Positions 1 through 22,378 of a DNA stretch of 31,247 nucleotides are shown in pieces. The DNA comes from Promethearchaeota archaeon. Its GTDB lineage: Archaea > Asgardarchaeota > Lokiarchaeia > Sigyniarchaeales > SOKP01. The position numbers and the translations under genes are program-made. Under the pieces are notes generated by a model. That model saw only the letters and a program-made list of their open reading frames with translations, was not told where the DNA came from and ran no database searches. The DNA lies in NCBI GenBank assembly GCA_011364975.1, contig RDOE01000041.1:1-31247 (forward strand), given 5' to 3'. Numbering within the stretch: the first letter of the stretch is position 1; each line of letters starts with the position of its first letter.

Positions 1-69
1 GTAGTAAATGAAATGAATTTAACGGAAAAAGAATTCGCCGAACGACTAGATAATTTAGGAAAACGATAA
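1..69 (+). CDS. 3' end of a gene truncated by the window edge (VVNEMNLTEKEFAERLDNLGKR*)
   Basis: Frame 1 is open from base 1 to TAA at 67-69, has protein-like composition and is followed by a T-tract. Confidence 0.6.
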   Translation, partial: VVNEMNLTEKEFAERLDNLGKR

Positions 70-84
70 GTACTGTTTCAATTT

Positions 85-109
85 TCTTTTTTTTTTAAAA
101 AAAAAAAGA
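85..109. terminator. Bidirectional oligo-T terminator (TC-T10-A11-GA) between convergent genes
   Basis: A T10 run (87-96) is directly followed by an A11 run (97-107), giving a U-tract on each strand just after each stop codon. Confidence 0.7.
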
Positions 110-110
110 T

Positions 111-512
111 TTACCAAAAAGGAATAGCTAAACTTTTTCCACTCATAAGTCCTAATATGAATGTAATCAGGAAATAAATAAAAAAGATCACAGTTGTAAC
201 TAAAAATGCATTAAGAAAGCCGATCCTATGGCGCAAATTTATGATTGCAATTGATATTATTAGAATGAGTATCCAAGCTATGAATGTATAAACAAATAAA
301 CTAAGTAGAACATAACATAGAGCTATAATTGAGGCCGTTATCAAAACTTTTAATGGTTCCGCTTTTTCAGATTTATCGAACATTCCGAGACCTACTTTTA
401 AAAGCAAAGCAATGATTAAGAAAAAGATTGCATATGCAAGTATAAACCAAATAATATTTTCGAACGAACTTAGAGATTGGTCCCAATAAGGAATAATAAA
501 TTGAAAAAACAA
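111..512 (-). CDS. Hypothetical membrane protein (about 4 TM helices)
   Basis: 133-aa ORF with four hydrophobic segments; GAGGT lies 8 nt upstream of the TTG start. Confidence 0.7.
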   Translation of the reverse strand: MFFQFIIPYWDQSLSSFENIIWFILAYAIFFLIIALLLKVGLGMFDKSEKAEPLKVLITASIIALCYVLLSLFVYTFIAWILILIISIAIINLRHRIGFLNAFLVTTVIFFIYFLITFILGLMSGKSLAIPFW

Positions 513-668
513 TCATTTCGACCTCTTATTAAATCAAAAATATGAATTTTTAAAGATATCCCAAAATTTAAACTTTTTTTCGAATTCAGTATCATTATTA
601 TAATATTTTGATTAGAGTGGAACATAATTATTTTAGAAACTTTATTTTCACCAAAAAAAATTGGAAAT

Positions 669-1760
669 GTGCAGATTAAAAATAGGATTGTACGTTCAGC
701 AACTTTAGAGGGATTAGCTGAAAAATATGGGTATGTAAGTTCTCGATTAATTAAATTTCATGAAGAATTAGCTCGGGGAGGTACTGGTCTTATAATTACT
801 GGTGCTGCTGCTGTCGATCCAAGCGGATCTGGAGGACCCTATCAAGTAAGAATCGATAATGAATCTTATTTAGATGGGCACAGAAAGTTAACTAATAAAA
901 TACATGAATATTCTGATATTAAAATCGCAATTCAACTCATTCATGTAGGACGACAAGGTTATCATCCAAAATATCATCCTATCGCCCCCTCCGCAGTGTT
1001 GTATCCAATTACAAATATCATGCCAAGAGTATTACGAACTGACGAGGTTGATCAATATATTAAAATGTTTGTTGACGCGAGTGTAAACGCTTATGAATGC
1101 GGATATGATATGGTACAATTGCATGGTGCCCATGGATATCTCCTCAGTAACTTTCTTTCTCCTTATACTAATAAGCGAAATGATATATATGGAGGAGATA
1201 TTGAAAATAGAGTTAGATTTATAATCGATATCTATAATCAAACTCGAGACAAGTTAGGAAAATCTTTTCCAATAATTATCAAATCTCAAATTAATGATTT
1301 TGTTCCAGGTGGATTAGAGGATGATGATGGAATAAGTATTGTTGAGAAACTTGTTGAGACTGGATTTGATGGGGTTGAACCAAGCGGTGGCATAGGAGAA
1401 ACTCCTATAATTACAAAGCAAGCTTATCCAAGTAAATTTATTAAAAAACCTGAAGATGAAAATTATTTTTTACCTCTCGCAAAAAAATTAAAACCAATTA
1501 TGAAGAACTCTGCTCTTATATTAGTTGGAGGAATCAAAAATCCAGTTTCAGCAGAAGAGATTCTTAAGAATAGATGGGCTGATTTTATATCCATGAGTAG
1601 ACCTTTAATATACGAACCGGATCTTCCTAAGCGATGGCAAGAAGGTGATTTAACCCCCGCAAAATGCACGAGTTGCAATTCATGTTTAGAAACTATGGGA
1701 ACAGGATTATATTGTGTAATTAGAAAAAAATTAGAGGAAAAAGATAGTAAAAATATATAA
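669..1760 (+). CDS. NADH:flavin oxidoreductase, Old Yellow Enzyme family, with C-terminal Cys motif
   Basis: Motifs KNRIVRSAT, ARGGTGLIITG, IQLIHVGRQ, QLHGAHGYLLSNFLSPYTNKRNDIYGG and SRPLIYEPDLP; C-terminal CTSCNSC...C is a likely Fe-S site. Confidence 0.92.
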   Translation: MQIKNRIVRSATLEGLAEKYGYVSSRLIKFHEELARGGTGLIITGAAAVDPSGSGGPYQVRIDNESYLDGHRKLTNKIHEYSDIKIAIQLIHVGRQGYHPKYHPIAPSAVLYPITNIMPRVLRTDEVDQYIKMFVDASVNAYECGYDMVQLHGAHGYLLSNFLSPYTNKRNDIYGGDIENRVRFIIDIYNQTRDKLGKSFPIIIKSQINDFVPGGLEDDDGISIVEKLVETGFDGVEPSGGIGETPIITKQAYPSKFIKKPEDENYFLPLAKKLKPIMKNSALILVGGIKNPVSAEEILKNRWADFISMSRPLIYEPDLPKRWQEGDLTPAKCTSCNSCLETMGTGLYCVIRKKLEEKDSKNI

Positions 1761-1794
1761 GAATTTATATAGAGTTTAATGCTTTAAATTCACA

Positions 1795-3672
1795 TCAATA
1801 AAGATCTTTAATGACAAAATCTAATTCCAATTCCTTTAAAGTTTCTTTAAGTGGATAAGCATTCTCTGGATTCCATCCCATTTTTGCACAATAACCCAAG
1901 AAATCTGCTTTGTAATCAACTGTTTTTCCTCTATTTGGACCTTCCTCAAATGGAGGATCTCCAACAACTCGACCAGGGAGGGTATTATTCGCGAGATCTA
2001 TGCCTTCTCTTAAAGTAAAAGCTTGTCGTAAATTTTGAATTCTTAAGCCGATTTTAATAATTTCATCAATATTCACATCCCATCCAGTTACAGCTTTAAT
2101 ACTCTCTAAAAAGGGATAAGTTTGAAACCAATAGGTGAATAGACACATACCTAAGGAATTAAGGCTTTGGTGTAATCCTGCGCACATCTTCATAGCTTCG
2201 TAGCGATCATCCCCAGGTTTTCGATACCGCTTTGGGAGGGTAAACTCTTTAATAAAATTATTTCGTGGTAGTACTCCTGTAATAAAGTGGTCCAGGCTAG
2301 AAGCCGTATGTCGTCCAGGTGTAGGCTCAAAAGCATAAGTTCGCCCCATCGAATTAAAAAATTTTGGATCGTGCATCGGCAGGGGTTGACCTAATGAATG
2401 CATTGCATATTTTTCACTATTTTTTCCAATCTTTTTTGTAGCAATTATGGGACCATCCGCTAAAATATCTCCAAAACCTTCTCTTTTGATCATATTCTCA
2501 ACTAGTTTAAATATTGCGTCTGAATTTCCCCAGTTTAGTTCAAGTCCATTAGTATCACTTTTGTTAATTAACCCATTTTCAAAACATTCGATTGCAAAGG
2601 CAACCATTCCTCCAACAGATATAGTATCTAATCCTGAACGATTACAAATATCATTTAGTTTAAAGAGTGAAATGAGATCATCATTAAGCAACATGTTGCC
2701 AAATGCAGCGCAAGTCTCATATTCGGGAATATGGGTTTCTTCAATGTTAGCTTCTGGCACCTTCATAATAGCACCACACTGAACAGAACAGGAAAAACAG
2801 CCATAATCTCTTAGTTTATATTTATTTATCTCCGCGGCAGAAATCTTATTCAAACGTTCCACAGGAAAATCTTGTGGACCATTTCCACCCCAATTTTTTA
2901 TAGGTGTGTCTCCCGATAAACCTGCAGATACATTGAGACAACTCAATCCCAATGTATGATATAAAAACATTGCTCCACTTTGATCGTTCTTAACTCCAGA
3001 ATTATAAGCTTTTGTATGCTCTAACAAACTCTCGCTATTTGCTACATTAACTTTATCATTCCCTTTAAGTACAATTGCTTTAAGTTTCTTTGAACCCATA
3101 ACCGCTCCAAGACCAGATCTTGCAGCAACTCTATGCTTATCGTGAACTATTCCTGATATAAGAGATAAATTCTCTCCTGAAGGCCCTATAGAAATAATAT
3201 TGACATTATTATGAGTTGATTTCAATTTATCTTCCGTTTCTGAAGTGTCCTTTCCCCATAAACTTGAAGCATCTAATACTTCTTTTGTATTATCTATTAT
3301 TGCCACATATTTAGGATTTTGTGCCATTCCTTTTATTAATATTCCATCAAATCCACATTTTTTAATTTCTGCTCCAATATAACCACCGACACTAGCATCT
3401 CCCCATGTACCAGTTAAAGGTGACTTACCAGCAACCATACATCTTCCAGTTAAAGGAGCAATTGATCCGGTCAATAATCCTGGAAAGAAACCAAGTATTG
3501 ATTCAGAACTAAGAGGGTCAGTTTTTTTCGGCATATGGTCATATATTAGTTTTGAAGCTAAACCATAACCTCCTAGATATTTTCGATATATTTCTTCGGG
3601 TAAAATTTCTACTGTGAATTCTTCTTTCGTTAGATCAATCCATAATACTTTTCCAAAAAATCCGTTTGACAT
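1795..3672 (-). CDS. aor: Aldehyde:ferredoxin oxidoreductase family (tungstopterin, 4Fe-4S)
   Basis: Motifs YLGGYGLA, KSPLTG, GAVMGSKKLKAI, CFSCSVQC, PEYET, GLDTIS and SLGMCLF; 625 aa is typical for the family. Confidence 0.95.
   Translation of the reverse strand: MSNGFFGKVLWIDLTKEEFTVEILPEEIYRKYLGGYGLASKLIYDHMPKKTDPLSSESILGFFPGLLTGSIAPLTGRCMVAGKSPLTGTWGDASVGGYIGAEIKKCGFDGILIKGMAQNPKYVAIIDNTKEVLDASSLWGKDTSETEDKLKSTHNNVNIISIGPSGENLSLISGIVHDKHRVAARSGLGAVMGSKKLKAIVLKGNDKVNVANSESLLEHTKAYNSGVKNDQSGAMFLYHTLGLSCLNVSAGLSGDTPIKNWGGNGPQDFPVERLNKISAAEINKYKLRDYGCFSCSVQCGAIMKVPEANIEETHIPEYETCAAFGNMLLNDDLISLFKLNDICNRSGLDTISVGGMVAFAIECFENGLINKSDTNGLELNWGNSDAIFKLVENMIKREGFGDILADGPIIATKKIGKNSEKYAMHSLGQPLPMHDPKFFNSMGRTYAFEPTPGRHTASSLDHFITGVLPRNNFIKEFTLPKRYRKPGDDRYEAMKMCAGLHQSLNSLGMCLFTYWFQTYPFLESIKAVTGWDVNIDEIIKIGLRIQNLRQAFTLREGIDLANNTLPGRVVGDPPFEEGPNRGKTVDYKADFLGYCAKMGWNPENAYPLKETLKELELDFVIKDLY
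3336..3402 (-). repeat. Left arm of a 67-bp inverted repeat (inside aor, encoding GDASVGGYIGAEIKKCGFDGIL)
   Basis: Its reverse complement matches 4707-4773 at 63/67 nt, including a 43-nt perfect run (3345-3387 vs 4722-4764); aligned by hand. Confidence 0.95.
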
Positions 3673-3811
3673 AATTACTAATTTTCATTTTGTTCTTAAA
3701 TAAGTAACTCTATTTGACGAATTTGTGAATAAGAATCTACAATAAGGAATAAAAAATTTTAAACATCAATTCATCTTTTATATCTCAAAAAAGTCAAATA
3801 AGACTACTTCT

Positions 3812-4672
3812 ATGAAAGATTTTACTAATAAAGTTGCAGTCATTACTGGAGCGGCAAGTGGGGTTGGGAGGGGGCTTGCTAATCAATGTGCTGTTGAAGG
3901 TATGAAGATAGTATTGGCAGACATTGAAAAGGACCCGTTATTGAAAGCTGAAAATGAATTAAGGCAAACTGGAGCCCAAACCATATCAGTATTAATGGAT
4001 GTATCAAAGTTAGAAGATGTAGAACGCCTAGCAAATACAACAATTAAGGAATTTGGGGAAGTAGATTTACTTTTTAATAATGCAGGAGTAGGCACAAGAG
4101 AAAATATTTGGGAAAGCACTATAAATGATTGGAAATGGGTTTTAGGAGTGAATCTCTGGGGAGTTATCCATGGAGTAAAAATATTTACCCCAATTATGCT
4201 TAAACAAAACAAAGAGTGTTTTATTTTAAATACTGCATCAGGATTTGCTCTAATAAATGGAAGTAGTATATATGGTGTGACTAAACGTGGAATTTTAAGT
4301 TTATCTGAATCTTTAAGCATACAATTAAAACAAATTAAATCAAAAATAAAAGTTGCTGTATTAATTCCAGGGTTTGTAAATACTAATATTGCAAATAGTG
4401 CACGTAATAGACCATCCGAATTACAAAATAAGAAAACCTTTTTAGAGGGGGATTTAGAAGATAAAGAGGAAGGTTTAAGATATAATGCTCAAAGTTTAAT
4501 ATCGCAAGGAATGAATCCAGATTATTTTGCTAAAATTGTGTTTCATGGTATTAGAAAAAATAAATTTCATATTATTGGAGACCCTGCAATAAAATTTCTT
4601 TTTAATACACGAGTAAGCAGGATTTTAAGAGATATTAAATATTTTGAGAAACATATTAGTGAGATAAAATGA
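3812..4672 (+). CDS. Short-chain dehydrogenase/reductase (classical SDR)
   Basis: TGAASGVG nucleotide-binding motif, NNAG, NTAS, catalytic YGVTK and PGFVNT. Confidence 0.95.
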   Translation: MKDFTNKVAVITGAASGVGRGLANQCAVEGMKIVLADIEKDPLLKAENELRQTGAQTISVLMDVSKLEDVERLANTTIKEFGEVDLLFNNAGVGTRENIWESTINDWKWVLGVNLWGVIHGVKIFTPIMLKQNKECFILNTASGFALINGSSIYGVTKRGILSLSESLSIQLKQIKSKIKVAVLIPGFVNTNIANSARNRPSELQNKKTFLEGDLEDKEEGLRYNAQSLISQGMNPDYFAKIVFHGIRKNKFHIIGDPAIKFLFNTRVSRILRDIKYFEKHISEIK

Positions 4673-4790
4673 CAAAGGATTATGAAGAAAAGTTGCCGTT
4701 ATTACTGGAGCTGCTAGCGTTGGTGGTTATATTGGAGCAGAAATTAAAAAATGTGGATTTGATGAAATATTAAAAGTATTTGAAGATTGA
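4669..4790 (+). pseudogene. Chimeric remnant: frameshifted SDR N-terminus fused to an AOR fragment
   Basis: ATG overlaps the SDR stop (ATGA). Adding one A to the run at 4688-4691 gives MTKDYEEKVAVITGAAS-VGGYIGAEIKKCGFDEILKVFED*. The first part parallels the SDR start (MKDFTNKVAVITGAAS) and the second parallels AOR. Confidence 0.8.
4707..4773 (+). repeat. Right arm of the 67-bp inverted repeat (copy of aor coding sequence)
   Basis: GGAGCTGCTAGCGTTGGTGGTTATATTGGAGCAGAAATTAAAAAATGTGGATTTGATGAAATATTAA differs from the aor copy only at 4711, 4718, 4721 and 4765. Confidence 0.95.
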
Positions 4791-4806
4791 GTTAAAAATA
4801 GTTAAG

Positions 4807-4821
4807 CTAAAAAATTTTTAG
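4807..4821. terminator. Putative bidirectional terminator CTAAAAAATTTTTAG
   Basis: Palindromic A6/T5 tract between convergent units, just past the stop of the minus-strand gene. Confidence 0.4.
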
Positions 4822-4822
4822 A

Positions 4823-5626
4823 TTAAATTTTGATATCCCATTTTAAAAAGGAATATGGAATAAATTTTTCATGTTCTAATTCTGCTACAACATAACCTTT
4901 CAACATTGAGTTAGTACCTTTTAAGTAAATTGCTCCTAAGATTTCTTCAATCTCAAGTTCCCCCCAAGGATCACTTTCTGATGATTGCAAAATCAATTGC
5001 GCACTCCCTAACTTCAATTCACTTGGTCGGAATACCACTTCTTCCCGTATTAGTCTTGGTTTGTAATCAAAATAATTACCATCTGGGGAAGGAAAATGCT
5101 TATAATTATAACATACTTGGATAATATCTTTACTACCACCAGGGGTTCCTCCAGTCCTCTCAGCAACTAATTGAATAAATTCTGGTGAGTTAGGTCTTCC
5201 ATTTAATTTTGCTTTAACTTCAAAATATCGTGTTCCATGACGCTCAGACCAACCTTCTACATCTCTTTTCTCTTTGCGAAAGTGAATATTGGCTAATTTT
5301 TTAGGGTATCCAAAAACTTCCCTCCCAGCTACTAATGCCATATCATCAGTCACTGGCATAGCTAAGCAATATCCTCCTTCAATACCTTCGTATTCACAAG
5401 AAAGGAACACTGCGGCTTCTTTATAAATTGACCCAAAATTGGTACGTGGATAATCAGCTACAAATGCGAATATAATTGGCATTTCTGCAGGTTTTAAAGG
5501 AGGTGGAAGTAATCTTTTAATGATATCGGGTTTTGTTTGCCAATATACAGCTAGCATCTCAGCATCATAAAAGTCGGCGGTTTCTCTATTAGACATGAAC
5601 CCTCCAGAAGTTCTTAAAAAACTCAT
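4823..5626 (-). CDS. Acetoacetate decarboxylase-like superfamily protein
   Basis: RLLPPPL, Y.EAAVFL, and GREVFGYPKKLA containing the Schiff-base lysine motif PKK. Confidence 0.88.
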   Translation of the reverse strand: MSFLRTSGGFMSNRETADFYDAEMLAVYWQTKPDIIKRLLPPPLKPAEMPIIFAFVADYPRTNFGSIYKEAAVFLSCEYEGIEGGYCLAMPVTDDMALVAGREVFGYPKKLANIHFRKEKRDVEGWSERHGTRYFEVKAKLNGRPNSPEFIQLVAERTGGTPGGSKDIIQVCYNYKHFPSPDGNYFDYKPRLIREEVVFRPSELKLGSAQLILQSSESDPWGELEIEEILGAIYLKGTNSMLKGYVVAELEHEKFIPYSFLKWDIKI

Positions 5627-5710
5627 AATCTTATAATCTCATTCTTTTAATTTATTGAATTAATATTGGTAGATTTAATCTAAATATAAAAATAACTAAT
5701 TTTTTTTAGG

Positions 5711-7240
5711 TTAATCCTCATCTGTTACAATATGTTCTATTGGATCATGGTCATAATTATACATATGAAATTTTTTAGGGCTTAAAAGGAAATTTGGATC
5801 TACCGCTTTCTTCATTTTTTTAAAAAATTGTATAAACTCAGGAGTATATGCTCCTGCCTCGACAATTGATTGCGAAATTGCTTCCCCAAGCCAATAATGA
5901 ACACCACCATATTTTACTTGATGTCTTAATTTTTTATGCCACATATTCATTGATTGTTCTCTTTGTTCATCTAGATTATCTGCATTGAATCCTCCTACAA
6001 TTACACAATTGCCGTTTGGTAATAGAAAGATAACTGTAGCAAATAATGACATACTTCCTGGAGGAAATTCACCTCTATATTTTATATCGAATTCCTCTGC
6101 TGATTTTGCTGCTTGAGGAATTACACTTATAGGGATCTTATGACAGGTTGTACAGGATATCTTAGGAGGAGATATGGAAATATATTTATTAAAATAATTA
6201 TAGGCATATTTTAAATTAAAACGCCACTCTTTTGAAATAGTTGCAGTACTATCAATTTCTTGCCATTCAAACGGTCTTGCCTCATCCTTCATAATATTTT
6301 CAACTTGTTCAAGATAGATCTCTAGAATTCGCTCATCCATTGCTTCTGTTAAAATTGAAAATACTGGTCCTTTTAATCGAGGGCGTTTTTCTGGTTTATT
6401 TTCTGTCATAGTAGATAATAATTGCACAACAATAAGTGGAACAACTAAGACATCATGCAATCCATCTCTTACTTCTTTTCTTAATTTATAGAGTAACTCA
6501 TAGACTTTAGTGTAATCATTTTTATTTAATATATAGTATCGTTGTTGTTTGAAGGGAGTCTCAGGAAATAAGCGCAAAAAGGCTTTGGTTTTAATGCCCA
6601 TGGTACCCACATCTCCCATAAAAAGCCCTGTAAAATCAGGAGCAACACCATAACGGCAAAATGGTTTCGCATATTTACTTGCTGCGGCTCCCGTTCTGAT
6701 GATAGTGCCTTGAGGATTTGGGAGTACCACTTCTACTCCAAGGCATATATCAGGAACCAAACCATATTTTGTTGACCCAAATCCAGCTGTACTATTTGAA
6801 AGTCCTCCCCCTATAGTAGCAGAATACCCACTTCCAGGTCCCAAAACCCCTGTAGTCAATTGTTTTTGATGTAATTGGGAAATTAGCGAACCCCAAGTAA
6901 TTCCGCATTCTAGTTCACAATAATAATTTTCCTCGTCAATTTCGAGAATTTTATTCATTCTGGTAAGATCTATTAAGATTCCTCCATCAGCTACAGAACC
7001 ACCAACTAGATCTGCACCACCACCTCGAGGAACCATAGGAATTTTAAATTTATTTGCAATTTTAACTATATTAGATACTTCTTTTGAATTTTGAGGTCTT
7101 ACTATAAAATCAGCCCATCTATCTGGGAATGCCGGATCAACATTTCTTGAATAAGCCGCTCTCATGAAATCTTTATCGGTAATGTAATCGGAACCAATTA
7201 TATCTTCAATTTCTTTATATGCTTCTTTAACTTTTGACAT
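5711..7240 (-). CDS. FAD-linked oxidoreductase (GlcD / D-lactate dehydrogenase-like, VAO/PCMH family)
   Basis: VRPQNSKEVSNIVKIAN, PRGGGADLVGG, ATIGGGLS, KYG, GTMGIKTKA and C-terminal KKAVDPNFLLSP. Confidence 0.9.
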   Translation of the reverse strand: MSKVKEAYKEIEDIIGSDYITDKDFMRAAYSRNVDPAFPDRWADFIVRPQNSKEVSNIVKIANKFKIPMVPRGGGADLVGGSVADGGILIDLTRMNKILEIDEENYYCELECGITWGSLISQLHQKQLTTGVLGPGSGYSATIGGGLSNSTAGFGSTKYGLVPDICLGVEVVLPNPQGTIIRTGAAASKYAKPFCRYGVAPDFTGLFMGDVGTMGIKTKAFLRLFPETPFKQQRYYILNKNDYTKVYELLYKLRKEVRDGLHDVLVVPLIVVQLLSTMTENKPEKRPRLKGPVFSILTEAMDERILEIYLEQVENIMKDEARPFEWQEIDSTATISKEWRFNLKYAYNYFNKYISISPPKISCTTCHKIPISVIPQAAKSAEEFDIKYRGEFPPGSMSLFATVIFLLPNGNCVIVGGFNADNLDEQREQSMNMWHKKLRHQVKYGGVHYWLGEAISQSIVEAGAYTPEFIQFFKKMKKAVDPNFLLSPKKFHMYNYDHDPIEHIVTDED

Positions 7241-7307
7241 AACTCTCGGTTATAACCTTATTCTACTAAATAATATACCTAAATTATTAAACTTTAGAAT
7301 AAATATT

Positions 7308-8096
7308 TTATTTTAATTTATTCACTCTTTTCTGAATTTTCTTTTTTATTGCTTCATAAGTAGGAGGAGGCCCAGTTCTAATCGATTTATCATCGATAAA
7401 TAATGCATCTCCTATTCCCCATTCTAAAAAGACTTGACGATTGGATGTATCAATCTCTTTAAATATAACCTTATCCCCAAATTCAGAAGCTGCTTTTTTA
7501 GCTCTTTCATATATTGAATTTTGAGCAGGACACCATCCATTTATAAAGGAAGTTACTGTCACCTTTCCAGGGATCTTCTTTGGCTTTTTTTTTAACTTGA
7601 TCCATTTTGGAGGCTTAGCATTGGGATTAAAAGGTTTCCAGAGTAATACACCCATACCATGTTTATCCACTTTAAGATATCCTTGCTTTTTAAACCAAGA
7701 AGCTTTCATCCAGAAAGGTAATGATACACCCCAAGCACTTATACCGTTAAAGTTTAAGGATTTTACATCCTCTTCAGCAGCTTTAAGAAGCAGTTTTCCA
7801 ATTCCTCTCTTCTGAAAATTTCCTACACCTTCATTATAACCATGGACCCAAATGCACAATATATGATATAAATTTTCTCCTTGAGCAAAAGATTGCTCAA
7901 TGGGAATGTATTGTATCATTCCAACAGCGTTTTCCTTTTCATCAATAGCTACTTTTACTCTGAGACCTTTATCTTTAACTTTTTCATACCATATAGTTTT
8001 ACGATCCCCCGCTTGCTTCATCTCATCAGACCACTCTTCTAAACACATTAAATATGCCGGTTTATGTAATTCAGATAGATTTTTAATTTCAATCAT
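7308..8096 (-). CDS. GNAT N-acetyltransferase with C-terminal thioredoxin-like (YoaP-like) domain
   Basis: GMIQYIP, ILCIWV, acetyl-CoA motif QKRGIGKLLL and WFKKQGY; C-terminal GWCPAQN...ALFIDDK. Confidence 0.82.
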   Translation of the reverse strand: MIEIKNLSELHKPAYLMCLEEWSDEMKQAGDRKTIWYEKVKDKGLRVKVAIDEKENAVGMIQYIPIEQSFAQGENLYHILCIWVHGYNEGVGNFQKRGIGKLLLKAAEEDVKSLNFNGISAWGVSLPFWMKASWFKKQGYLKVDKHGMGVLLWKPFNPNAKPPKWIKLKKKPKKIPGKVTVTSFINGWCPAQNSIYERAKKAASEFGDKVIFKEIDTSNRQVFLEWGIGDALFIDDKSIRTGPPPTYEAIKKKIQKRVNKLK

Positions 8097-8200
8097 TTTG
8101 TTCCCCTTAATTATATAAGATTGGATTATTAATAATCAAAATTAAGAAATTGTGATATTTATAGTTTGTAATATAAGACTAATTTAAAAAACTTAGAGTA

Positions 8201-8542
8201 TTAAATCCACGAAGCTATAATTGGAGTAGTCGCAATAAGATCTACCAAATCCTCATACTGAATACATTTAACTTTTTGATGGATATCTTCTATATCTATT
8301 CCTCTTGCAGCAATATCTGGAATTAATCCGTAAACCTTTATTGGGAGGTCAAGAAGCTCATTAACTAGGATTGGAAGATTTATCTTCCTTGATAAACCAA
8401 TTACACCATCATGAATTAGAACTACAGCGATTCTTTTATGATTGATAATTTGCACTTTCAAAATCATTAATAAGTTTTTTAATTGCATCACTTTATTAGG
8501 ACTAAATCCAAAAAGATATAAAATTTCATTTTTTTCTTCCAT
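8201..8542 (-). CDS. dsrH: DsrH/TusB-like sulfur-relay subunit
   Basis: VVLIHDGV and VYGLIPDIAARGI, then I.YEDLVDLI...IASW. Start moved to ATG 8542, 5 nt after a GGTGA RBS. Confidence 0.8.
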   Translation of the reverse strand: MEEKNEILYLFGFSPNKVMQLKNLLMILKVQIINHKRIAVVLIHDGVIGLSRKINLPILVNELLDLPIKVYGLIPDIAARGIDIEDIHQKVKCIQYEDLVDLIATTPIIASWI

Positions 8543-8560
8543 AAAGTTCACCAAATTAAT

Positions 8561-8929
8561 TTAGTAGCGAAATATGGTATCTGCTTGTATAATAAAATCC
8601 GATATTTCTTCTATATTCGCTATCTTCACATTTTCAAAATTGATTAATTCATCTCGTTTAATACCAGCATTTTCCAAAGCAGTATCTAATGCAAAGATCT
8701 CAATATCTGACATTTCTATCATTCGATGAATATTTTCAACACTTTCCATGTGTATCACTTCTGGATTAAGTTTTTTACTCAAAAAGTAAACAGCATCACC
8801 CATAAAAATTATTTTACATGATTCAATATCTCCTAAAACCGTGATACCAGCACCCATTCGAATCGATTCGGTGGTTGAATTTTTACCTATTGGAGAATCT
8901 TCACAAATTATAACCACTGACTTTACCAT
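8561..8929 (-). CDS. dsrF: DsrF/TusC-like sulfur-relay subunit
   Basis: DsrE/F fold motifs (SPIG, ESIRMGAG, IIFMGDAVYFL) without the active-site Cys. Start moved to ATG 8929 downstream of GGAGGA (8942-8937). Confidence 0.75.
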   Translation of the reverse strand: MVKSVVIICEDSPIGKNSTTESIRMGAGITVLGDIESCKIIFMGDAVYFLSKKLNPEVIHMESVENIHRMIEMSDIEIFALDTALENAGIKRDELINFENVKIANIEEISDFIIQADTIFRY

Positions 8930-8933
8930 TTTA

Positions 8934-9302
8934 TCATCCTCCAGGACCAAACATTATTACTCTGTCAGAGGCCGCCATCCATTCAGATAAACCTCCTAAA
9001 CCATCTTGGCATACACCGGGAACGAACTTTTCACCCTTTAATCCCGTAAAGTTGATCCATGTACTACATGCGCTTATATTTAAATTGTATTTCTTCATGA
9101 AATCTTCTAATCGCTTTGGTAAGTTTCTTATTGCCGAACCGACATTGACATCTTTATTTATATTATATACTCCACTACCATAAAAGAATATACCTAAAAT
9201 TTGATGCCCTTTGCTTAATAATGCTTCTCCTAAATTTAATAAGGTATCAATTGCCTCAAATTTATAAGGTTCAGCACAAACTACAAAAGAAACAGTTACC
9301 AT
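8934..9302 (-). CDS. dsrE: DsrE/TusD-like sulfurtransferase
   Basis: EPY, ALLSKGHQILGIFFYGSGVYN, conserved Cys in ISACSTW, and GLGGLSEWMAASDRVIMF; first gene of an E-F-H trio. Confidence 0.85.
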   Translation of the reverse strand: MVTVSFVVCAEPYKFEAIDTLLNLGEALLSKGHQILGIFFYGSGVYNINKDVNVGSAIRNLPKRLEDFMKKYNLNISACSTWINFTGLKGEKFVPGVCQDGLGGLSEWMAASDRVIMFGPGG

Positions 9303-11474: not shown

Positions 11475-12407
11475 TTAATAATGTGGCATTTCAGGATGGA
11501 TTTCTTGAACAAACTTAAGGTTAAAGATATCATCCACTCCAATTAGTTGGTTAATATAACCCAATTTATAAAGTAATTCCACAAATTTCATTGTCGCATT
11601 AATATAACCTTCTGATAGAGCAATACAATATTTAGGCGAGATTTTTAAAACAGATTCAACATATTCTTTACTCAATATGGTAAAGGTTTTTGAAATGATT
11701 TCTGCCGCTTTCGATGGGTCTTCTCTTAATAAATAAGATGATTTTTTATGATATTTAAGAAATTCAAATACTAATTCGGGATTTTCTTTTATCAATTTTT
11801 CAGTAAAAAAGATACCATAACTAGGATTATCTGCCCAGAAATAGTTCGAAGGTACAACAATTTTTGATTTTACTAAAGTTGAAGCAAAAATGGCTAATGA
11901 GGGTGTCCCAACCCCTGCTTCTAATTTATTATTCTTCATATCAAGAGCGATAAATTCTGCTTGTTTATAGTTATGAATTTTAACCCTAACTTCTTTACAA
12001 TATTCTTCCATTAAAGATTTCAGAATAACATCATGGATAGAACCTTCACTTGGTACTCCTACAGATTTATTTTTAAATTGCTTAAAAAATTTATAAAAAT
12101 CATTATCTAAATCCATAATGGTCTTATAATTCTTTCTTGCGATCATAATTGTACCTTCTACGTGACCTCCCGCGACACATTTTAATGGTAAACCTTTACT
12201 TATTCCAATAATTGCGGGGGGTAATCCCATATACCCTATATCCAATTCATTTTCTCGAAATGCTTGTATCATTGAAGGCCCTGTTCCATATAATTTCCAT
12301 ATCACTTCCCTCTTCATACTTTCTGCTAAACTATTATCAGCCATGAGAATAAAATTAGTGTGATATGCTGTTGAAAGGTGGCCAATTCGTATTTGTAACT
12401 TTTTCAT
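11475..12407 (-). CDS. NitT/TauT (SsuA/NMT1-like) substrate-binding-fold protein, no evident signal peptide
   Basis: IRIGHL, GPSMIQAF...LDIGYMGLPPAI, VGVPSEGSIHDVIL, LIKENPELV and DPSKAAEII. Confidence 0.8.
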   Translation of the reverse strand: MKKLQIRIGHLSTAYHTNFILMADNSLAESMKREVIWKLYGTGPSMIQAFRENELDIGYMGLPPAIIGISKGLPLKCVAGGHVEGTIMIARKNYKTIMDLDNDFYKFFKQFKNKSVGVPSEGSIHDVILKSLMEEYCKEVRVKIHNYKQAEFIALDMKNNKLEAGVGTPSLAIFASTLVKSKIVVPSNYFWADNPSYGIFFTEKLIKENPELVFEFLKYHKKSSYLLREDPSKAAEIISKTFTILSKEYVESVLKISPKYCIALSEGYINATMKFVELLYKLGYINQLIGVDDIFNLKFVQEIHPEMPHY

Positions 12408-12553
12408 AATTTTTTCAAAATAAGGTTATAAAATAATAATTAATTAACTGATTTTTTAAGTTTTTATAATAAAAAGTATTATTTTTATGACTAGATAACC
12501 ATATCTTGTTATTACAAGATAATTATAGATATCTTCTAAAACAATTGATTATT

Positions 12554-12841
12554 ATGGCTAAGATAAAGATTACTTTTTTATCAATTTTGAGCGATATTAT
12601 TGGAAATAGAGAAATATCCCTTAAAATAGGAGAAAATTCCTCCGTTAGAGATATATTAGAAAATTTAAAAAAATATCTTGGGCATAATTTTGAATTAAAT
12701 TTCTTTAACCCCGATGAGTCATTAAAAGAATATATTATTATTGCACTAAATGGAAAAGATATTCGTCAGGATGAAAATCTTGGAACCATCATACATAATG
12801 GAGACAATATCTCATTCTTGCCAGCAATAGCAGGAGGTTGA
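12554..12841 (+). CDS. MoaD/ThiS/SAMP-like ubiquitin-fold sulfur carrier
   Basis: 95 aa from ATG 12554; IALNGKDI...GDNISFLPAIAGG ends in a free Gly-Gly. Confidence 0.92.
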   Translation: MAKIKITFLSILSDIIGNREISLKIGENSSVRDILENLKKYLGHNFELNFFNPDESLKEYIIIALNGKDIRQDENLGTIIHNGDNISFLPAIAGG

Positions 12842-12853
12842 AGAGAAAATTTT

Positions 12854-13084
12854 TCATAATTTTTTTAATACCATTACCCAAGTTTTTTTAGGGGGGTCAA
12901 CTTCCTTTACATTTATTACTTCTGCTAGATTTTGTCGTTTAACGCTCTCGGGGATATTTTTGAGAGCAGACGGAAAATCTAAGATAACTTCTAATAATTC
13001 TCCCTTTTTCAACTCTTCAAGAGCTAATTTTGTATAAACAAATGTCATAGGACACATTTTACCGCGTATATCTAACCTATTCAA
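12854..13084 (-). CDS. tusA: TusA/SirA family sulfurtransferase
   Basis: LDIRGKMCPMTFVYTKLALEELKKGELLEVILD; CPxT variant of the CPxP motif. The frame stays open 9 more codons to a CTG. Confidence 0.92.
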   Translation of the reverse strand: MNRLDIRGKMCPMTFVYTKLALEELKKGELLEVILDFPSALKNIPESVKRQNLAEVINVKEVDPPKKTWVMVLKKL

Positions 13085-13101
13085 ACGATCATCTTTCCGA
13101 T

Positions 13102-13917
13102 CTATTGACAGGAATTATCATCTCCATATGTTAAATAATCAAGTAAATTTTTTGCATTGACACCGCAAGCAATACAATTGTCATCATGTTTAACATCAAT
13201 GAAATCAAACCTATTTTCTAAAAGATCAACGTACAAAATCTTATTCTTAATTAGATCACCAATATTTAGGATGTATTTAATAGCTTCGTTTGCTTCTAAG
13301 CATCCTAATATCCCTGGTACAAATCCTATTACTCCTGCTTGTGAACAAGACATACTGGAATCCCCCTGGATGGCATCACCAAAGATACATCTATAACATG
13401 CGGTTTTCTCTTCCGGGATTACAGTTATTATTTGGCCATGAAATCTTAACACTCCAGCAATAGTGAATGGTATCTTCAAATGAATACAAGTATCATTAAT
13501 TAGCATCTTGGTTTGGAGATTATCTGAACCTTCGATTACAAAATTAGAATCTTTAAGTAATTTTTTTGAATTATTTTTAGTTATCTGCTCACTCACAATT
13601 TCAATTTCACAATCGGGGTTGAGCTGAGTTATTTTTTCAAAAGAACTCTCGGTTTTTTTTCTACCTATATCTTTAGTGAAGTGAAGGATTTGCCTGTGTA
13701 AATTAGAGATTTCTACTTCATCAAAGTCTATTAATTGTAGTTTTCCAACACCTGCTGCGGCTAGATAATATGTAACTGGAGATCCTAAAGCTCCAAGACC
13801 TACAATGGATATTTTTGAGTTTAATAATTTTACTTGTCCTATTCCACCTACTTCTTTTAGTAGTATTTGACGAGAATATCTTTTAATCTGTTTTTCAGTC
13901 AATTTCATTTTATCCAT
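13102..13917 (-). CDS. ThiF/MoeB/UbaA family E1-like adenylyltransferase
   Basis: RYSRQILL, GLGALGS, DFDEVEISNLHRQ, SDN, CYRC, CSQAGV and CIAC; no rhodanese domain. Start moved to ATG 13917. Confidence 0.95.
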   Translation of the reverse strand: MDKMKLTEKQIKRYSRQILLKEVGGIGQVKLLNSKISIVGLGALGSPVTYYLAAAGVGKLQLIDFDEVEISNLHRQILHFTKDIGRKKTESSFEKITQLNPDCEIEIVSEQITKNNSKKLLKDSNFVIEGSDNLQTKMLINDTCIHLKIPFTIAGVLRFHGQIITVIPEEKTACYRCIFGDAIQGDSSMSCSQAGVIGFVPGILGCLEANEAIKYILNIGDLIKNKILYVDLLENRFDFIDVKHDDNCIACGVNAKNLLDYLTYGDDNSCQ

Positions 13918-14020
13918 ATTAGTAAAAACAAATTTATTATAGAAATAAATTAAGATTATAGAACAAAAGATAATGTTCAAAGAAATTTATATTATATATG
14001 AAAAAAGTATCGAAATGCTA

Positions 14021-16670: not shown

Positions 16671-17702
16671 ATGCCAACCCATTTTGAATCTTTTGGTAAT
16701 TTCACAACAGGAATGAGCTCATACTGGGCATTAATTTCAAAAAAGTCCCGAGGAACGATACAATTATCTGAAAAATCCTTTTCATTTAAATCAGAAAAAG
16801 ATAAGATTTTATTTGATATTAAAATTTCAAATATTCAAAATTTTTATCTGATAAAACGGTTTAGGTTTCTTAGTATAGAATTAATCACAGATCAAGGTGT
16901 TTATTACAATTTATATCCTCGTACCCAACAAAATAAGATGTTTGGCGGATCCGAAAAATTAGCCAAAGAACTTTTCACAAGTCTTGTTCGAGTTGTATAT
17001 AAAGGAGATTATCCAATTTTATTTGAAACAAAAGGTTCTTTTATTAAAAAAAAAGTTAAAGAGGGTATTCTTCAAGAAAAAAGACATAATGGGATTGTAA
17101 TTCTTACAGAAGAGTATATCCTATTCAAAGCATATAAAAAAAAGCCAAATAAAAAAATTCCTATTCTCGAAATAGAAGATACTATTCTTCATAATAATAA
17201 TTCAGAAATGTATTTACAAATAAAACTAAAAGATAAAAACGTATTTTCAATAATAGCACTAAAAAATAAACGTAATAGAAATCGTAAAGATAAAGTAAAA
17301 ACTGCTCAACTATATGAGATGTTAATTCAAGCTAAACAATATAAAATTTCTGAAAATATTAAAAAACAAGAAGAAGATGAGATGCGGATTAAGCGCTTAA
17401 AATCAATGTTCGAAGTTTCTAATAAGGTAAGGTTAGATATGGTACGTTTAGCATTAGACATGGAGGAAAAAACTTTTACAAATAAAATCTTTCAATGGGC
17501 AAAAAAGTTTAAATTCATTATAGATGGAGATTACCTAATTGTTAATACGGATACCATCAATAAATTTATAGAGGATTTAAAATTGGGATTCGATCTCACT
17601 ATTAGAGGAGAATTAAAAACAAACTGTATAAATTGCGGTAAATCTTTTGATTATACTGCTAAAATTTGTCCTTACTGTGGAAAAGAACAAGTAGAAATTT
17701 GA
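16671..17702 (+). CDS. Multidomain protein: two PH/GRAM-like repeats, PCI/winged-helix-like domain, zinc ribbon
   Basis: Internal repeat FES.G.F...GTIQLSEKSFSFK vs FET.G.F...GIVILTEEYILFK; then IFQWAKKFKFIIDGDYLIV; then CINCG...CPYCG. Confidence 0.65.
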   Translation: MPTHFESFGNFTTGMSSYWALISKKSRGTIQLSEKSFSFKSEKDKILFDIKISNIQNFYLIKRFRFLSIELITDQGVYYNLYPRTQQNKMFGGSEKLAKELFTSLVRVVYKGDYPILFETKGSFIKKKVKEGILQEKRHNGIVILTEEYILFKAYKKKPNKKIPILEIEDTILHNNNSEMYLQIKLKDKNVFSIIALKNKRNRNRKDKVKTAQLYEMLIQAKQYKISENIKKQEEDEMRIKRLKSMFEVSNKVRLDMVRLALDMEEKTFTNKIFQWAKKFKFIIDGDYLIVNTDTINKFIEDLKLGFDLTIRGELKTNCINCGKSFDYTAKICPYCGKEQVEI

Positions 17703-21901: not shown

Positions 21902-22378
21902 TCACCAACAGCTAGGATCAAAATATTGTTTATAGTCTTCTAACCAACTACATTTAGTATATTTACAGTAGTTTTCAGTAATTTCTTCTCCTTTTTGAAT
22001 ATCCCTAAGAGCAACAGAACAAAATCCGTTCTCATCTTCAGAGGCACCAGAATTATCATCAAACGAGTGGTTAACATATCTTGAATCATCTAAGCAGAAA
22101 ACCAAAGCATCAAGATCTCTTTCATAATAAGAATAAGTCAACAATCCTTGAAAAAAATTTTCTAAGATATTTGATTTAGATGATTTTTCTAAGGTTAAAA
22201 ATTGAATTTTCGAAATGATTAATACATCTTGAGGTCTTGCATGCCACCAAATAGTATTTTTTGGGATTAGTTGTTTTGCAAATAAACCTAATCCATGAAT
22301 ATTGCTTTTCTTTACTTCACAATATATATCAATAGGATTTTTTGAGGTTAAATTATAAGGTATTTGTTCTTGCTCCAT
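21902..22378 (-). CDS. Stand-alone SET-domain protein (putative lysine methyltransferase)
   Basis: SNIHGLGLFAK (SAM-binding GxG), RYVNHS and ALRDIQKGEEITENY. Confidence 0.9.
   Translation of the reverse strand: MEQEQIPYNLTSKNPIDIYCEVKKSNIHGLGLFAKQLIPKNTIWWHARPQDVLIISKIQFLTLEKSSKSNILENFFQGLLTYSYYERDLDALVFCLDDSRYVNHSFDDNSGASEDENGFCSVALRDIQKGEEITENYCKYTKCSWLEDYKQYFDPSCW

Follow-up and report, generated by a model that had tools for sequence, protein, structure and literature searches.

A short segment from inside an aldehyde:ferredoxin oxidoreductase family gene (aor) recurs in inverted orientation on the far side of the neighboring short-chain dehydrogenase/reductase gene (SDR1) in the window, i.e., the whole 31,247-nt stretch of DNA analyzed here, raising the question of whether the two arms form an invertible switch or are the residue of a past rearrangement. 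Comparison with L038, a same-species contig from an independent metagenome, suggests that the repeat is very probably a strain-specific template-switch or microhomology-repair scar in an already dead gene, left by a one-off event and having no part in a switch. Among the readings offered by the initial annotation, the scar is thus strengthened by a pre-event allele (in L038), while neither the reversible switch nor a paralogous donor finds support.

The inverted repeat and its setting

A repeat search of the window returned the arms (Table 1) as 67-nt sequences, 94% complementary and 1304 nt apart. Base by base, arm A and the reverse complement of arm B match at 63/67 positions, with mismatches at 4711, 4718, 4721, and 4765 (arm-B numbering) and a perfect core of 43 nt (3345-3387 in arm A, 4722-4764 in arm B). 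With up to three mismatches allowed, this 43-mer has exactly two copies in the window, a result obtained in 0 of 100 dinucleotide-preserving shuffles. The 67-bp inverted copy and its 43-nt core, as originally described, are therefore confirmed. So is the gene context: aor and the SDR gene lie where they had been placed, arm A starts after aor codon 90, and the reading frame through arm B ends in ...GFDEILKVFED*, as had been predicted. The aor product matches its family profiles over their full length (AFOR_N 1-198/199, AFOR_C 10-385/385), and an acetoacetate decarboxylase (ADC) family gene is convergent with SDR1, the 150-nt spacer between them being the site of the candidate scar.

Table 1. 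Features of the locus in window coordinates; coordinates prefixed L038 refer to the same-species contig.
Feature	Position	Strand	Remarks
aor, aldehyde:ferredoxin oxidoreductase family	1795..3672	-	625 aa, intact; probable donor gene
Arm A, internal aor segment	3336..3402	-	aor codons 91-113, ...GDASVGGYIGAEIKKCGFDGIL...
Probable donor tract, 39 nt	3351..3389	-	from arm coordinate mapping and window-versus-L038 breakpoints
SDR1, short-chain dehydrogenase/reductase	3812..4672	+	286 aa, intact; adh_short domain
psiSDR2 5' remnant	4669..4719	+	ends in left microhomology 4707-4719
Arm B as first described	4707..4773	+	left microhomology (13 nt) + 39-nt insertion + right microhomology (15 nt)
Probable templated insertion, 39 nt	4720..4758	+	inverted copy of aor 3351-3389; replaces 299 nt of psiSDR2 interior (L038 4910-5208)
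psiSDR2 3' remnant	4759..4790	+	...DEILKVFED*, stop 4788-4790; first 15 nt (4759-4773) = right microhomology with aor
Acetoacetate decarboxylase (ADC) family gene	4823..5626	-	PF06314, E 1.4e-51

The source genome is a MAG of 3.74 Mb in 200 contigs; a search of all of it with arm B, as proposed in the initial annotation, gave two matches only, arm B itself and the adjacent aor. Genome self-BLAST (at least 88% identity, word size 20) yielded only nine repeat pairs, of which the arm A/arm B pair is the third longest. The other two local inverted pairs in the genome, on contigs C151 (51 nt) and C180 (44 nt), were rejected as scars, as they are in-frame conserved motifs (GFGGSCFPKD; IEGPRFSTRAES) of opposite-strand paralogous genes. 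Terminal inverted repeats of a transposable element (IS or MITE) were likewise considered and rejected: the 3.74 Mb hold just two copies, arm A is part of the aor coding sequence, in frame, and what the arms enclose is the aor 5' end and an SDR gene. The exact 43-nt core had no match in JGI metagenome contigs, which fits the one difference inside the core in the L038 aor.

Short repeats can mis-join contigs, and the MAG carries an estimated contamination of 6%, so the repeat might in principle be an assembly chimera or artefact. This was examined in Logan contigs (k=31) from four runs of four studies, which break at the 43-nt core. One contig of run X1 (record 4, covering 3358-4751) and one of run X3 (record 27, covering 4265-4751) both cross 4707-4721 with 0 differences, while contigs from runs X1, X3, and X11 begin at 4735 and continue into the ADC gene; run contigs near arm B show 0-1 differences to the window. 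In X3, the 43-nt core is a separate contig at double depth (27.3 versus 13.2 and 14.9). At the right junction the run contigs hold only 24 nt of the insertion on its left, fewer than the 31 letters of the rule of thumb, but the junction is exact and absent from the L038 allele. Since runs of other studies reproduce both the left boundary of arm B and its continuation into the ADC gene, a chimera, which the initial annotation had raised, has almost nothing left to recommend it. None of the run pieces listed carries the L038-type allele. An apparent joint of 3366 to 3622 (X3, X11) was set aside: it belongs to a 2038-nt contig matching only 38 nt here, with two differences, and was judged to derive from a different aor gene or organism.

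The same-species allele and a second, decayed SDR gene

L038 is collinear with the window and 97-98% identical to it, with L038 187-4909 aligning to window 1-4719 (97.0% identity) and L038 5209-8938 to window 4759-8488 (98.0% identity). The sole allele difference at the scar is the 39 nt of the window against the 299 nt of L038 (Table 1). Arm B is absent from L038, where the aor, SDR, and ADC-family genes are all intact and in the same order as in the window. The L038 aor likewise encodes 625 aa and differs from that of the window at 17 aa and 54/1878 nt; its SDR1 is 98% identical, with 5 aa differences.

The 299 nt specific to L038 are the interior of a second, decayed SDR gene, designated psiSDR2. 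Together with their flanks, they match residues 1-52 and 188-284 of relatives' SDR proteins (tblastn, E ~1e-9 to 3e-10). The N-terminal part of psiSDR2 in L038 reads MITDYEDKVAVITGDASGIGYALAEKCLNE and the C-terminal part CPGWV...PANEAADRIFDDMRRGKFYILTH...VDEILKAFED*, with frameshifts and stops, and the SDR of one relative ends in ...DAILKAFDD. The window pieces RKVAVITGAAS and DEILKVFED* are thus the two ends of this one pseudogene. In the window, the psiSDR2 ATG overlaps the SDR1 stop (ATGA), and the 5' remnant, which forms a direct repeat with the start of SDR1 at 79%, encodes M-T-K-D-Y-E-E-K and then, past a 1-nt deletion following 4688 (a gap at window 4689 relative to L038 4878), VAVITGAAS.

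Relatives at the genus and order levels were searched as well (41 genomes by DNA and 42 by SDR1 protein). The closest aor orthologue in the 41 genomes is 66% identical in amino acid sequence, and the closest SDR1 orthologue in the 42 is 52% identical. None of the loci examined (9 aor loci, 13 SDR loci, and, in species-representative genomes, 80 aor loci) shows the aor-SDR-ADC arrangement, and the locus therefore has no outgroup. The arm repeats are not conserved: the conspecific lacks arm B, and there is no synteny at the 13 SDR and 80 aor loci of other species. On C89, a small contig belonging to the genome of the window, an SDR paralog adjoins an ADC paralog, but the two are divergently arranged.

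The L038-like allele is probably the ancestral one because its extra 299 nt carry SDR-homologous coding remnants. As only one pre-event contig was found, this polarity is drawn from the coding content of those 299 nt and not from an outgroup.

Donor, junctions, and the proposed event

The 39-nt insertion matches aor only, as the reverse complement. At its left side lies the microhomology GGAGATGCTAGCG, identical at 13/13 positions between psiSDR2 and aor of L038, and at its right side TTGATG (6 nt exact), one mismatch, and then AATATTAA, 14/15 overall. Both junctions thus carry microhomology that, as seen in the L038 allele, was already present before the event, and because the junctions sit at these pre-existing microhomologies, the 67-nt arm resolves into the 39-nt insertion and two chance microhomologies. 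The one-off template-switch scar suggested earlier at GGAG.TGCTAG is supported, and its junction correctly named, the left junction falling exactly in that motif, with its 13-nt perfect microhomology in L038.

The identity of the donor can be read from the mismatches. Arm B matches the L038 aor at 64/67 positions and the window's own aor at 63/67; at 4718 and 4721 it equals the L038 aor allele, at 4765 it has the base of psiSDR2 itself, and 4711 is unique to the window. The bases shared at 4718 and 4721 therefore point to the resident aor, and no paralog, as the donor. The window aor differs from the insertion at 4721 and the L038 aor differs at another position, leaving no perfect present-day donor, so the donor allele itself is a reconstruction. 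The four mismatches to the adjacent aor, two of them at synonymous third positions, had prompted the suggestion that the copy came from an aor paralog, or it might be from foreign DNA; however, the genome holds no other match of at least 88%, its best paralog (on contig C149) is ~72% identical over the arm region, relatives' aor segments reach 77-87% there, and it is precisely the two synonymous mismatches, 4718 and 4721, that equal the conspecific aor allele, with 4765 coming from psiSDR2. Such an outside donor is accordingly highly improbable. The resident gene appears to have been copied rather than cut and was kept unchanged, with 625 aa, full Pfam coverage, and an intact frame in both the window and L038.

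A single template-switch event in the lineage of the window very probably accounts for these features, as follows. The ancestral state would have had a tandem second SDR gene, psiSDR2, downstream of SDR1 and already a pseudogene. DNA synthesis would have reached the left microhomology within the start of psiSDR2, and the nascent 3' end would have paired with the identical copy of that motif that aor, ~1.3 kb away, carries on the opposite strand; ~39-45 nt of aor would then have been copied in reverse-complement orientation. Synthesis would next have returned to psiSDR2 near the 3' end of the pseudogene at the second microhomology (TTGATG, 14/15 over TTGATGRAATATTAA). On balance, 299 nt would have been lost and a 39-nt inverted templated insertion gained. 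The molecular route may have been a template switch at the replication fork (four-point, FoSTeS, or MMBIR) or, following a double-strand break, synthesis-dependent microhomology-mediated end joining; both leave the same sequence, which therefore cannot separate a replicative from a break-repair origin. A two-step history, with the deletion first and the insertion afterwards, is possible. The 67-nt inverted repeat is a by-product with no designed function, and aor, SDR1, and the ADC-family gene are untouched.

An antisense RNA from arm B is a speculative idea. Read-through from SDR1 on the + strand would put a sense copy of aor into the transcript, and a - strand transcript (from the ADC gene) encounters T6 and T5 tracts, located between 4823 and 4774, ahead of arm B; oligo-T runs terminate archaeal transcription.

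Recombination between the arms and comparison with known systems

A programmed ON/OFF switch would require a site-specific recombinase to flip 3403-4706, an inversion that would cut aor short and turn around SDR1 and the divergent promoter region. The repeat, perfect over its 43-nt core, does flank a promoter-containing segment, and a single tyrosine recombinase (PF00589) is encoded in the genome; this enzyme, however, is on another contig (C52), not that of the window. No serine recombinase (PF00239) is present in the genome, and recombinase families are absent from the 32 window ORFs scanned, in agreement with the initial annotation. Moreover, the conspecific has its three genes in the same order without arm B, which is itself accounted for base for base as an insertion plus microhomologies in a dead gene, and flipping would do no more than truncate aor, giving rise to no other functional product. 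The reversible intragenic switch is thus unsupported, and its probability is close to nil.

An accidental inversion polymorphism is a less demanding alternative, in which the repeat would permit occasional RadA-dependent recombination and leave a minority of cells flipped and aor-broken. It has in its favor 43 nt of perfect identity 1.3 kb apart, RadA/Rad51-family recombinases encoded in the genome (best 322 bits), and run data that are compatible with it, as both orientations yield identical contigs at k=31. Set against these points, no flipped molecule was observed, the segment has the same orientation in the assembled contig as in L038, ~40 bp is a poor length for recombination, and aor would be lost from flipped cells; such a polymorphism is considered unlikely. 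Less likely still, the 43-bp perfect inverted repeat that the template switch made in one step around SDR1, the divergent promoter region, and the aor 5' end may in this lineage act as an incipient flip-flop that needs no dedicated recombinase (RadA-driven) and turns aor off in a subpopulation; if true, this would be a natural example of a replication error giving rise to an invertible switch in an Asgard archaeon.

Read as an ordinary neutral scar in a pseudogene, the repeat matters little on its own, and one candidate phase-variation switch is struck off. It has modest value as a clean natural example, with both pre- and post-event alleles, of a microhomology-primed deletion with inverted templated insertion from an uncultured member of the Asgard archaea (Promethearchaeota); Asgard DNA replication and repair are of interest through kinship to eukaryotes. 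It also carries two warnings, namely, that short inverted coding-sequence copies in MAGs need within-species comparison before being labeled invertons, and that mismatches at repeat ends can reflect pre-existing microhomology rather than divergence after copying.

Invertons are site-specific DNA inversion switches, such as Hin/hix, FimBE/fimS, and the invertible promoters of Bacteroides. The locus resembles them in that inverted repeats bracket a ~1.3-kb segment with a promoter region. Unlike invertons, it has no invertase next to it, conservation of the repeat fails even at the species level, and one arm lies in coding sequence and the other in a pseudogene.

The proposed event is closer to FoSTeS/MMBIR and to templated inverted insertions at double-strand breaks, sharing with them a microhomology-primed switch of a 3' end, a short templated insertion, and junction microhomology; in the accessible excerpts of the sources, such events are described in eukaryotes (yeast and human cancer), in part involving Pol theta or Pol delta (PMC8421209, PMC11724301). 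For Asgard archaea, no description of a templated inverted insertion was found in the source excerpts returned by a literature search that was not designed to prove absence. Archaea are known to join deletions at microhomologies by microhomology-mediated end joining, as described for Saccharolobus with its PriSL primase (PMC12019639) and for Haloferax self-targeting (PMC12281630). A primase/polymerase that anneals and extends microhomologies could make a templated insertion, although the archaeal products reported in these excerpts are small indels or deletions, versus the 39-nt inverted templated insertion here.

Template switching at quasipalindromes is classically known from the Ripley model and E. 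coli work, as outlined in part of PMC7202029. In the four-point model (Loytynoja and Goldman 2017, PMC5453318), as far as the excerpt sets it out, the reverse complement of a nearby stretch (points 2 to 3) supplants an ancestral stretch (points 1 to 4), creating an inverted repeat with dissimilar flanking sequence and an intact donor. Published short-range events, on which the model was based, span tens of base pairs and usually perfect a pre-existing near-palindrome (PMC5453318), whereas the scar has a jump of ~1.3 kb, a return that skips 299 nt, and, as pre-existing complementarity, only microhomologies of 13 and ~15 nt; the longer jump counts against this reading. The scar fits the four-point pattern exactly, with window 4720-4758 being the reverse complement of 3351-3389, taking the place of L038 4910-5208, and leaving its donor intact.

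An inverted repeat with one arm in aor and the other beyond SDR1

The inverted repeat proposed in the initial annotation was recovered, precisely at its coordinates, by both a repeat search of the window (67-nt arms, 94% complementary, 1304 nt between them) and a base-by-base comparison, in which 63 of 67 positions match and the mismatches fall at arm-B positions 4711, 4718, 4721, and 4765. Between SDR1 and the ADC-family gene is a 150-nt spacer, which contains arm B. Allowing ≤3 mismatches, the perfect core was found at two places in the window and in 0 of 100 shuffles. Self-BLAST of the metagenome-assembled genome (3.74 Mb, 200 contigs, 30.6% G+C; contig C141 is the window in its entirety) returned nine repeat pairs, the arm pair being the third longest. 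The only other local inverted pairs, on contigs C151 and C180, are in-frame conserved motifs in paralogous genes on opposite strands: GFGGSCFPKD, which we take to be a UDP-glucose-dehydrogenase-like motif, and IEGPRFSTRAES, presumably a nucleoside-phosphorylase-like one.

Features of the aor-SDR1 locus, the remaining window, and other loci
Feature	Coordinates	Strand	Description
aor	1795-3672	-	625 aa; AFOR_N and AFOR_C domains full-length
SDR1	3812-4672	+	286 aa; classical short-chain dehydrogenase, divergent from aor
ADC-family gene	4823-5626	-	convergent, next after SDR1
Arm A	3336-3402		inside aor
Arm B	4707-4773		between SDR1 and ADC
Perfect core	3345-3387 / 4722-4764		43 nt
Spacer ORF	4669-4773	+	34 codons
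DsrE/DsrE/DsrH-like trio near ThiS and ThiF family genes	8201-9302 (-) and 12506-13980		
POB3_N-like PH domain	16671-17702	+	weak match, E 2.7e-6, no stretch passing alone
SET-domain protein	21902-22378	-	E 7.5e-12
Inverted pair, same genome	C151:7622-7672 / 11553-11603		51 nt, 88%
Inverted pair, same genome	C180:12736-12779 / 13856-13899		44 nt, 93%
SDR1 paralog and ADC-family paralog, same genome (L033)	C89:1497-3310		about 43% and 48% aa identity; divergent; 4.2-kb contig
Tandem SDR genes, congeneric genome G015 (L032)	C22:7789-9560		33-37% and 46-47% aa identity to SDR1 (tblastn segments)

Strong RadA/Rad51-family matches encoded in this genome and the closest aor genes, all from Promethearchaeota (Asgard, Lokiarchaeia-type) MAGs, place it among the Asgard archaea. 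With the POB3_N-like and SET matches, this Asgard archaeon shows chromatin-associated domains of a eukaryote-like type. Elsewhere in the window, the DsrE/DsrE/DsrH-like trio together with ThiS and ThiF suggests a putative sulfur-relay or sulfur-carrier cluster.

Independent assemblies and a conspecific allele

The window's sequence occurs in 20 public runs from seven studies, which sampled metagenomes of marine sediment, estuary, mangrove, and "soil", and four runs from four studies were examined as independently built contigs (k=31). The left junction is crossed from SDR1 into the core in runs X1 (record 4, 3358-4751; possibly the sample from which the genome was assembled) and X3 (record 27, 4265-4751, 0 differences). 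Records in X1, X3, and a third run, X11, lead from the core into ADC, beginning at 4735 with 0-1 differences, such that the right junction is preceded by only 24 insertion-derived bases. In X3, the core forms a separate contig at 27.3x, compared to 13.2x and 14.9x for its neighbors, as fits a sequence present twice. An assembly artefact was rejected, as among the four runs examined the left junction is reproduced in independently built contigs of X1 and X3 and the right junction in those of X1, X3, and X11.

Within the genus, the species representatives are distant (closest aor 66% and closest SDR1 52% aa identity), and the window gene order was found in none of the 9 + 13 + 80 loci examined. 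Of the 25 loci that a protein-guided scan (query SDR1) recovered from JGI metagenome contigs, one, L038 (Ga0180438_10002500, 29.8 kb), is conspecific. L038 is collinear with the window over 187-4909 (window 1-4719, 97.0% identity) and 5209-8938 (window 4759-8488, 98.0%), and its copies of aor, SDR1, and ADC (625, 286, and 267 aa) are intact, differing from those of the window at 17, 5, and 1 residues, respectively. The sole structural difference is the presence of window 4720-4758 (39 nt) in place of L038 4910-5208 (299 nt).

A decayed second SDR gene and the donor of the insertion

Downstream of SDR1, L038 carries a decayed SDR gene (psiSDR2), whose ATG overlaps the SDR1 stop and which encodes MITDYEDKVAVITGDASGIGYALAEKCLNE... 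and, past frameshifts, CPGWV...PANEAADRIFDDMRRGKFYILTHKYPALKNYNKLR and VDEILKAFED-stop. Against SDRs from related genomes, these fragments align with residues 1-52 and 188-284 (E about 1e-9 to 3e-10), and in one of those proteins DEILKAFED corresponds to the actual C-terminus (...DAILKAFDD), so the species appears once to have had a tandem second SDR gene. Because residues about 32-190 are missing, psiSDR2 was already a pseudogene in L038. In the window, the left part of the spacer (4689-4726) repeats the beginning of SDR1 in direct orientation at 79%, and one frame reads RKVAVITGAAS-VGGYIGAEIKKCGFDEIL-KVFED-stop, namely an SDR N-terminus, an aor piece, and a short tail; RKVAVITGAAS and DEILKVFED-stop are the two ends of psiSDR2. 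An ATG at 4669 shares bases with the SDR1 stop (ATGA), a position that would suit the first codon of a second gene in tandem, but KVAVITGAAS lies in another frame; relative to L038, the window copy has lost one further base near the beginning of psiSDR2 (gap at 4689). From this old ATG to the exact end of arm B runs the spacer ORF, MTKDYEEKLPLLLELLALVVILEQKLKNVDLMKY-stop, which could encode a small hydrophobic peptide, a putative by-product of the scar, if translational coupling persists.

The tandem pair in G015 shows that an intact SDR-SDR arrangement, of the kind inferred for the ancestor of this locus, is present in the genus, and the C89 pair that SDR and ADC-family genes recur as neighbors in the window's genome.

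The 39 nt specific to the window correspond to aor 3351-3389 in reverse complement. On the left, GGAGATGCTAGCG is common to psiSDR2 and aor (minus strand) of L038 at 13/13 bases, for which the SDR codons give (T)GDAS and the aor codons (W)GDAS; on the right, both share TTGATG, one mismatch, and then AATATTAA. The 67-nt arm can therefore be divided into microhomologies of 13 nt (left) and 15 nt (right) with a 39-nt templated insertion between them. Mismatch 4765 is psiSDR2's own base (the same A in L038), 4711 has changed in the window alone, and 4718 and 4721 agree with the L038 aor allele, which arm B matches at 64/67 positions; the latter two may reflect either post-event synonymous drift of the window aor or allelic variation of the donor. 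Since the arm mismatches are accounted for in this way, the donor was, judging from these bases, the resident aor of this species rather than a paralog. The initial annotation had alternatively considered an aor paralog elsewhere; the best one, on contig C149, is about 72% identical over this region, and 4718/4721 equal the L038 aor allele. The genome search that it proposed with the 67-mer matched arm B only to itself and the adjacent aor.

An unsupported invertible switch and a probable template switch

A programmed switch, in which recombination between the arms would flip the enclosed segment, had been put forward alongside a one-off scar. The genome encodes one tyrosine recombinase, located on a different contig. 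No serine recombinase was found in the genome, and a scan of 32 window ORFs turned up no recombinase, as initially noted. The switch is not supported on these grounds and because arm B is missing in conspecific L038 and lies within a dead gene, and a flip would only break aor. Rare homologous inversion at the new 43-bp perfect repeat is a separate, improbable reading: RadA-family recombinases are encoded in the genome, and since the core (43 nt) exceeds the k-mer (31), both orientations of the inner segment yield identical run contigs. The one-off scar is supported by the likely pre-event allele in L038, the microhomology at both junctions, and the intact donor. The feature is a strain-specific template-switch scar in a decaying pseudogene and is probably neutral.

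As a proposed mechanism, a 3′ end lying near the beginning of psiSDR2 and terminating in the 13-nt motif would pair with its complement 1.3 kb back in the aor region, on either the nascent strand itself or a sister template. Extension by about 39-45 nt, dissociation, and re-pairing via TTGATG at the psiSDR2 3′ end would leave a 299-nt deletion and a 39-nt inverted insertion. The setting may have been a stalled fork or break repair, both of which give the same sequence outcome.

The scar belongs to an established type of mutation and is of low general interest, save that an Asgard archaeon here offers a clear case with both alleles at hand. It matches the four-point template-switch model (PMC5453318): a fragment swapped for the reverse complement of a nearby one, each switch point carrying microhomology and the donor remaining intact. 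FoSTeS/MMBIR or synthesis-dependent microhomology-mediated end joining also yield such patterns (PMC8421209, PMC11724301), and in another archaeon the replicative primase is documented to carry out microhomology-mediated end joining (PMC12019639).
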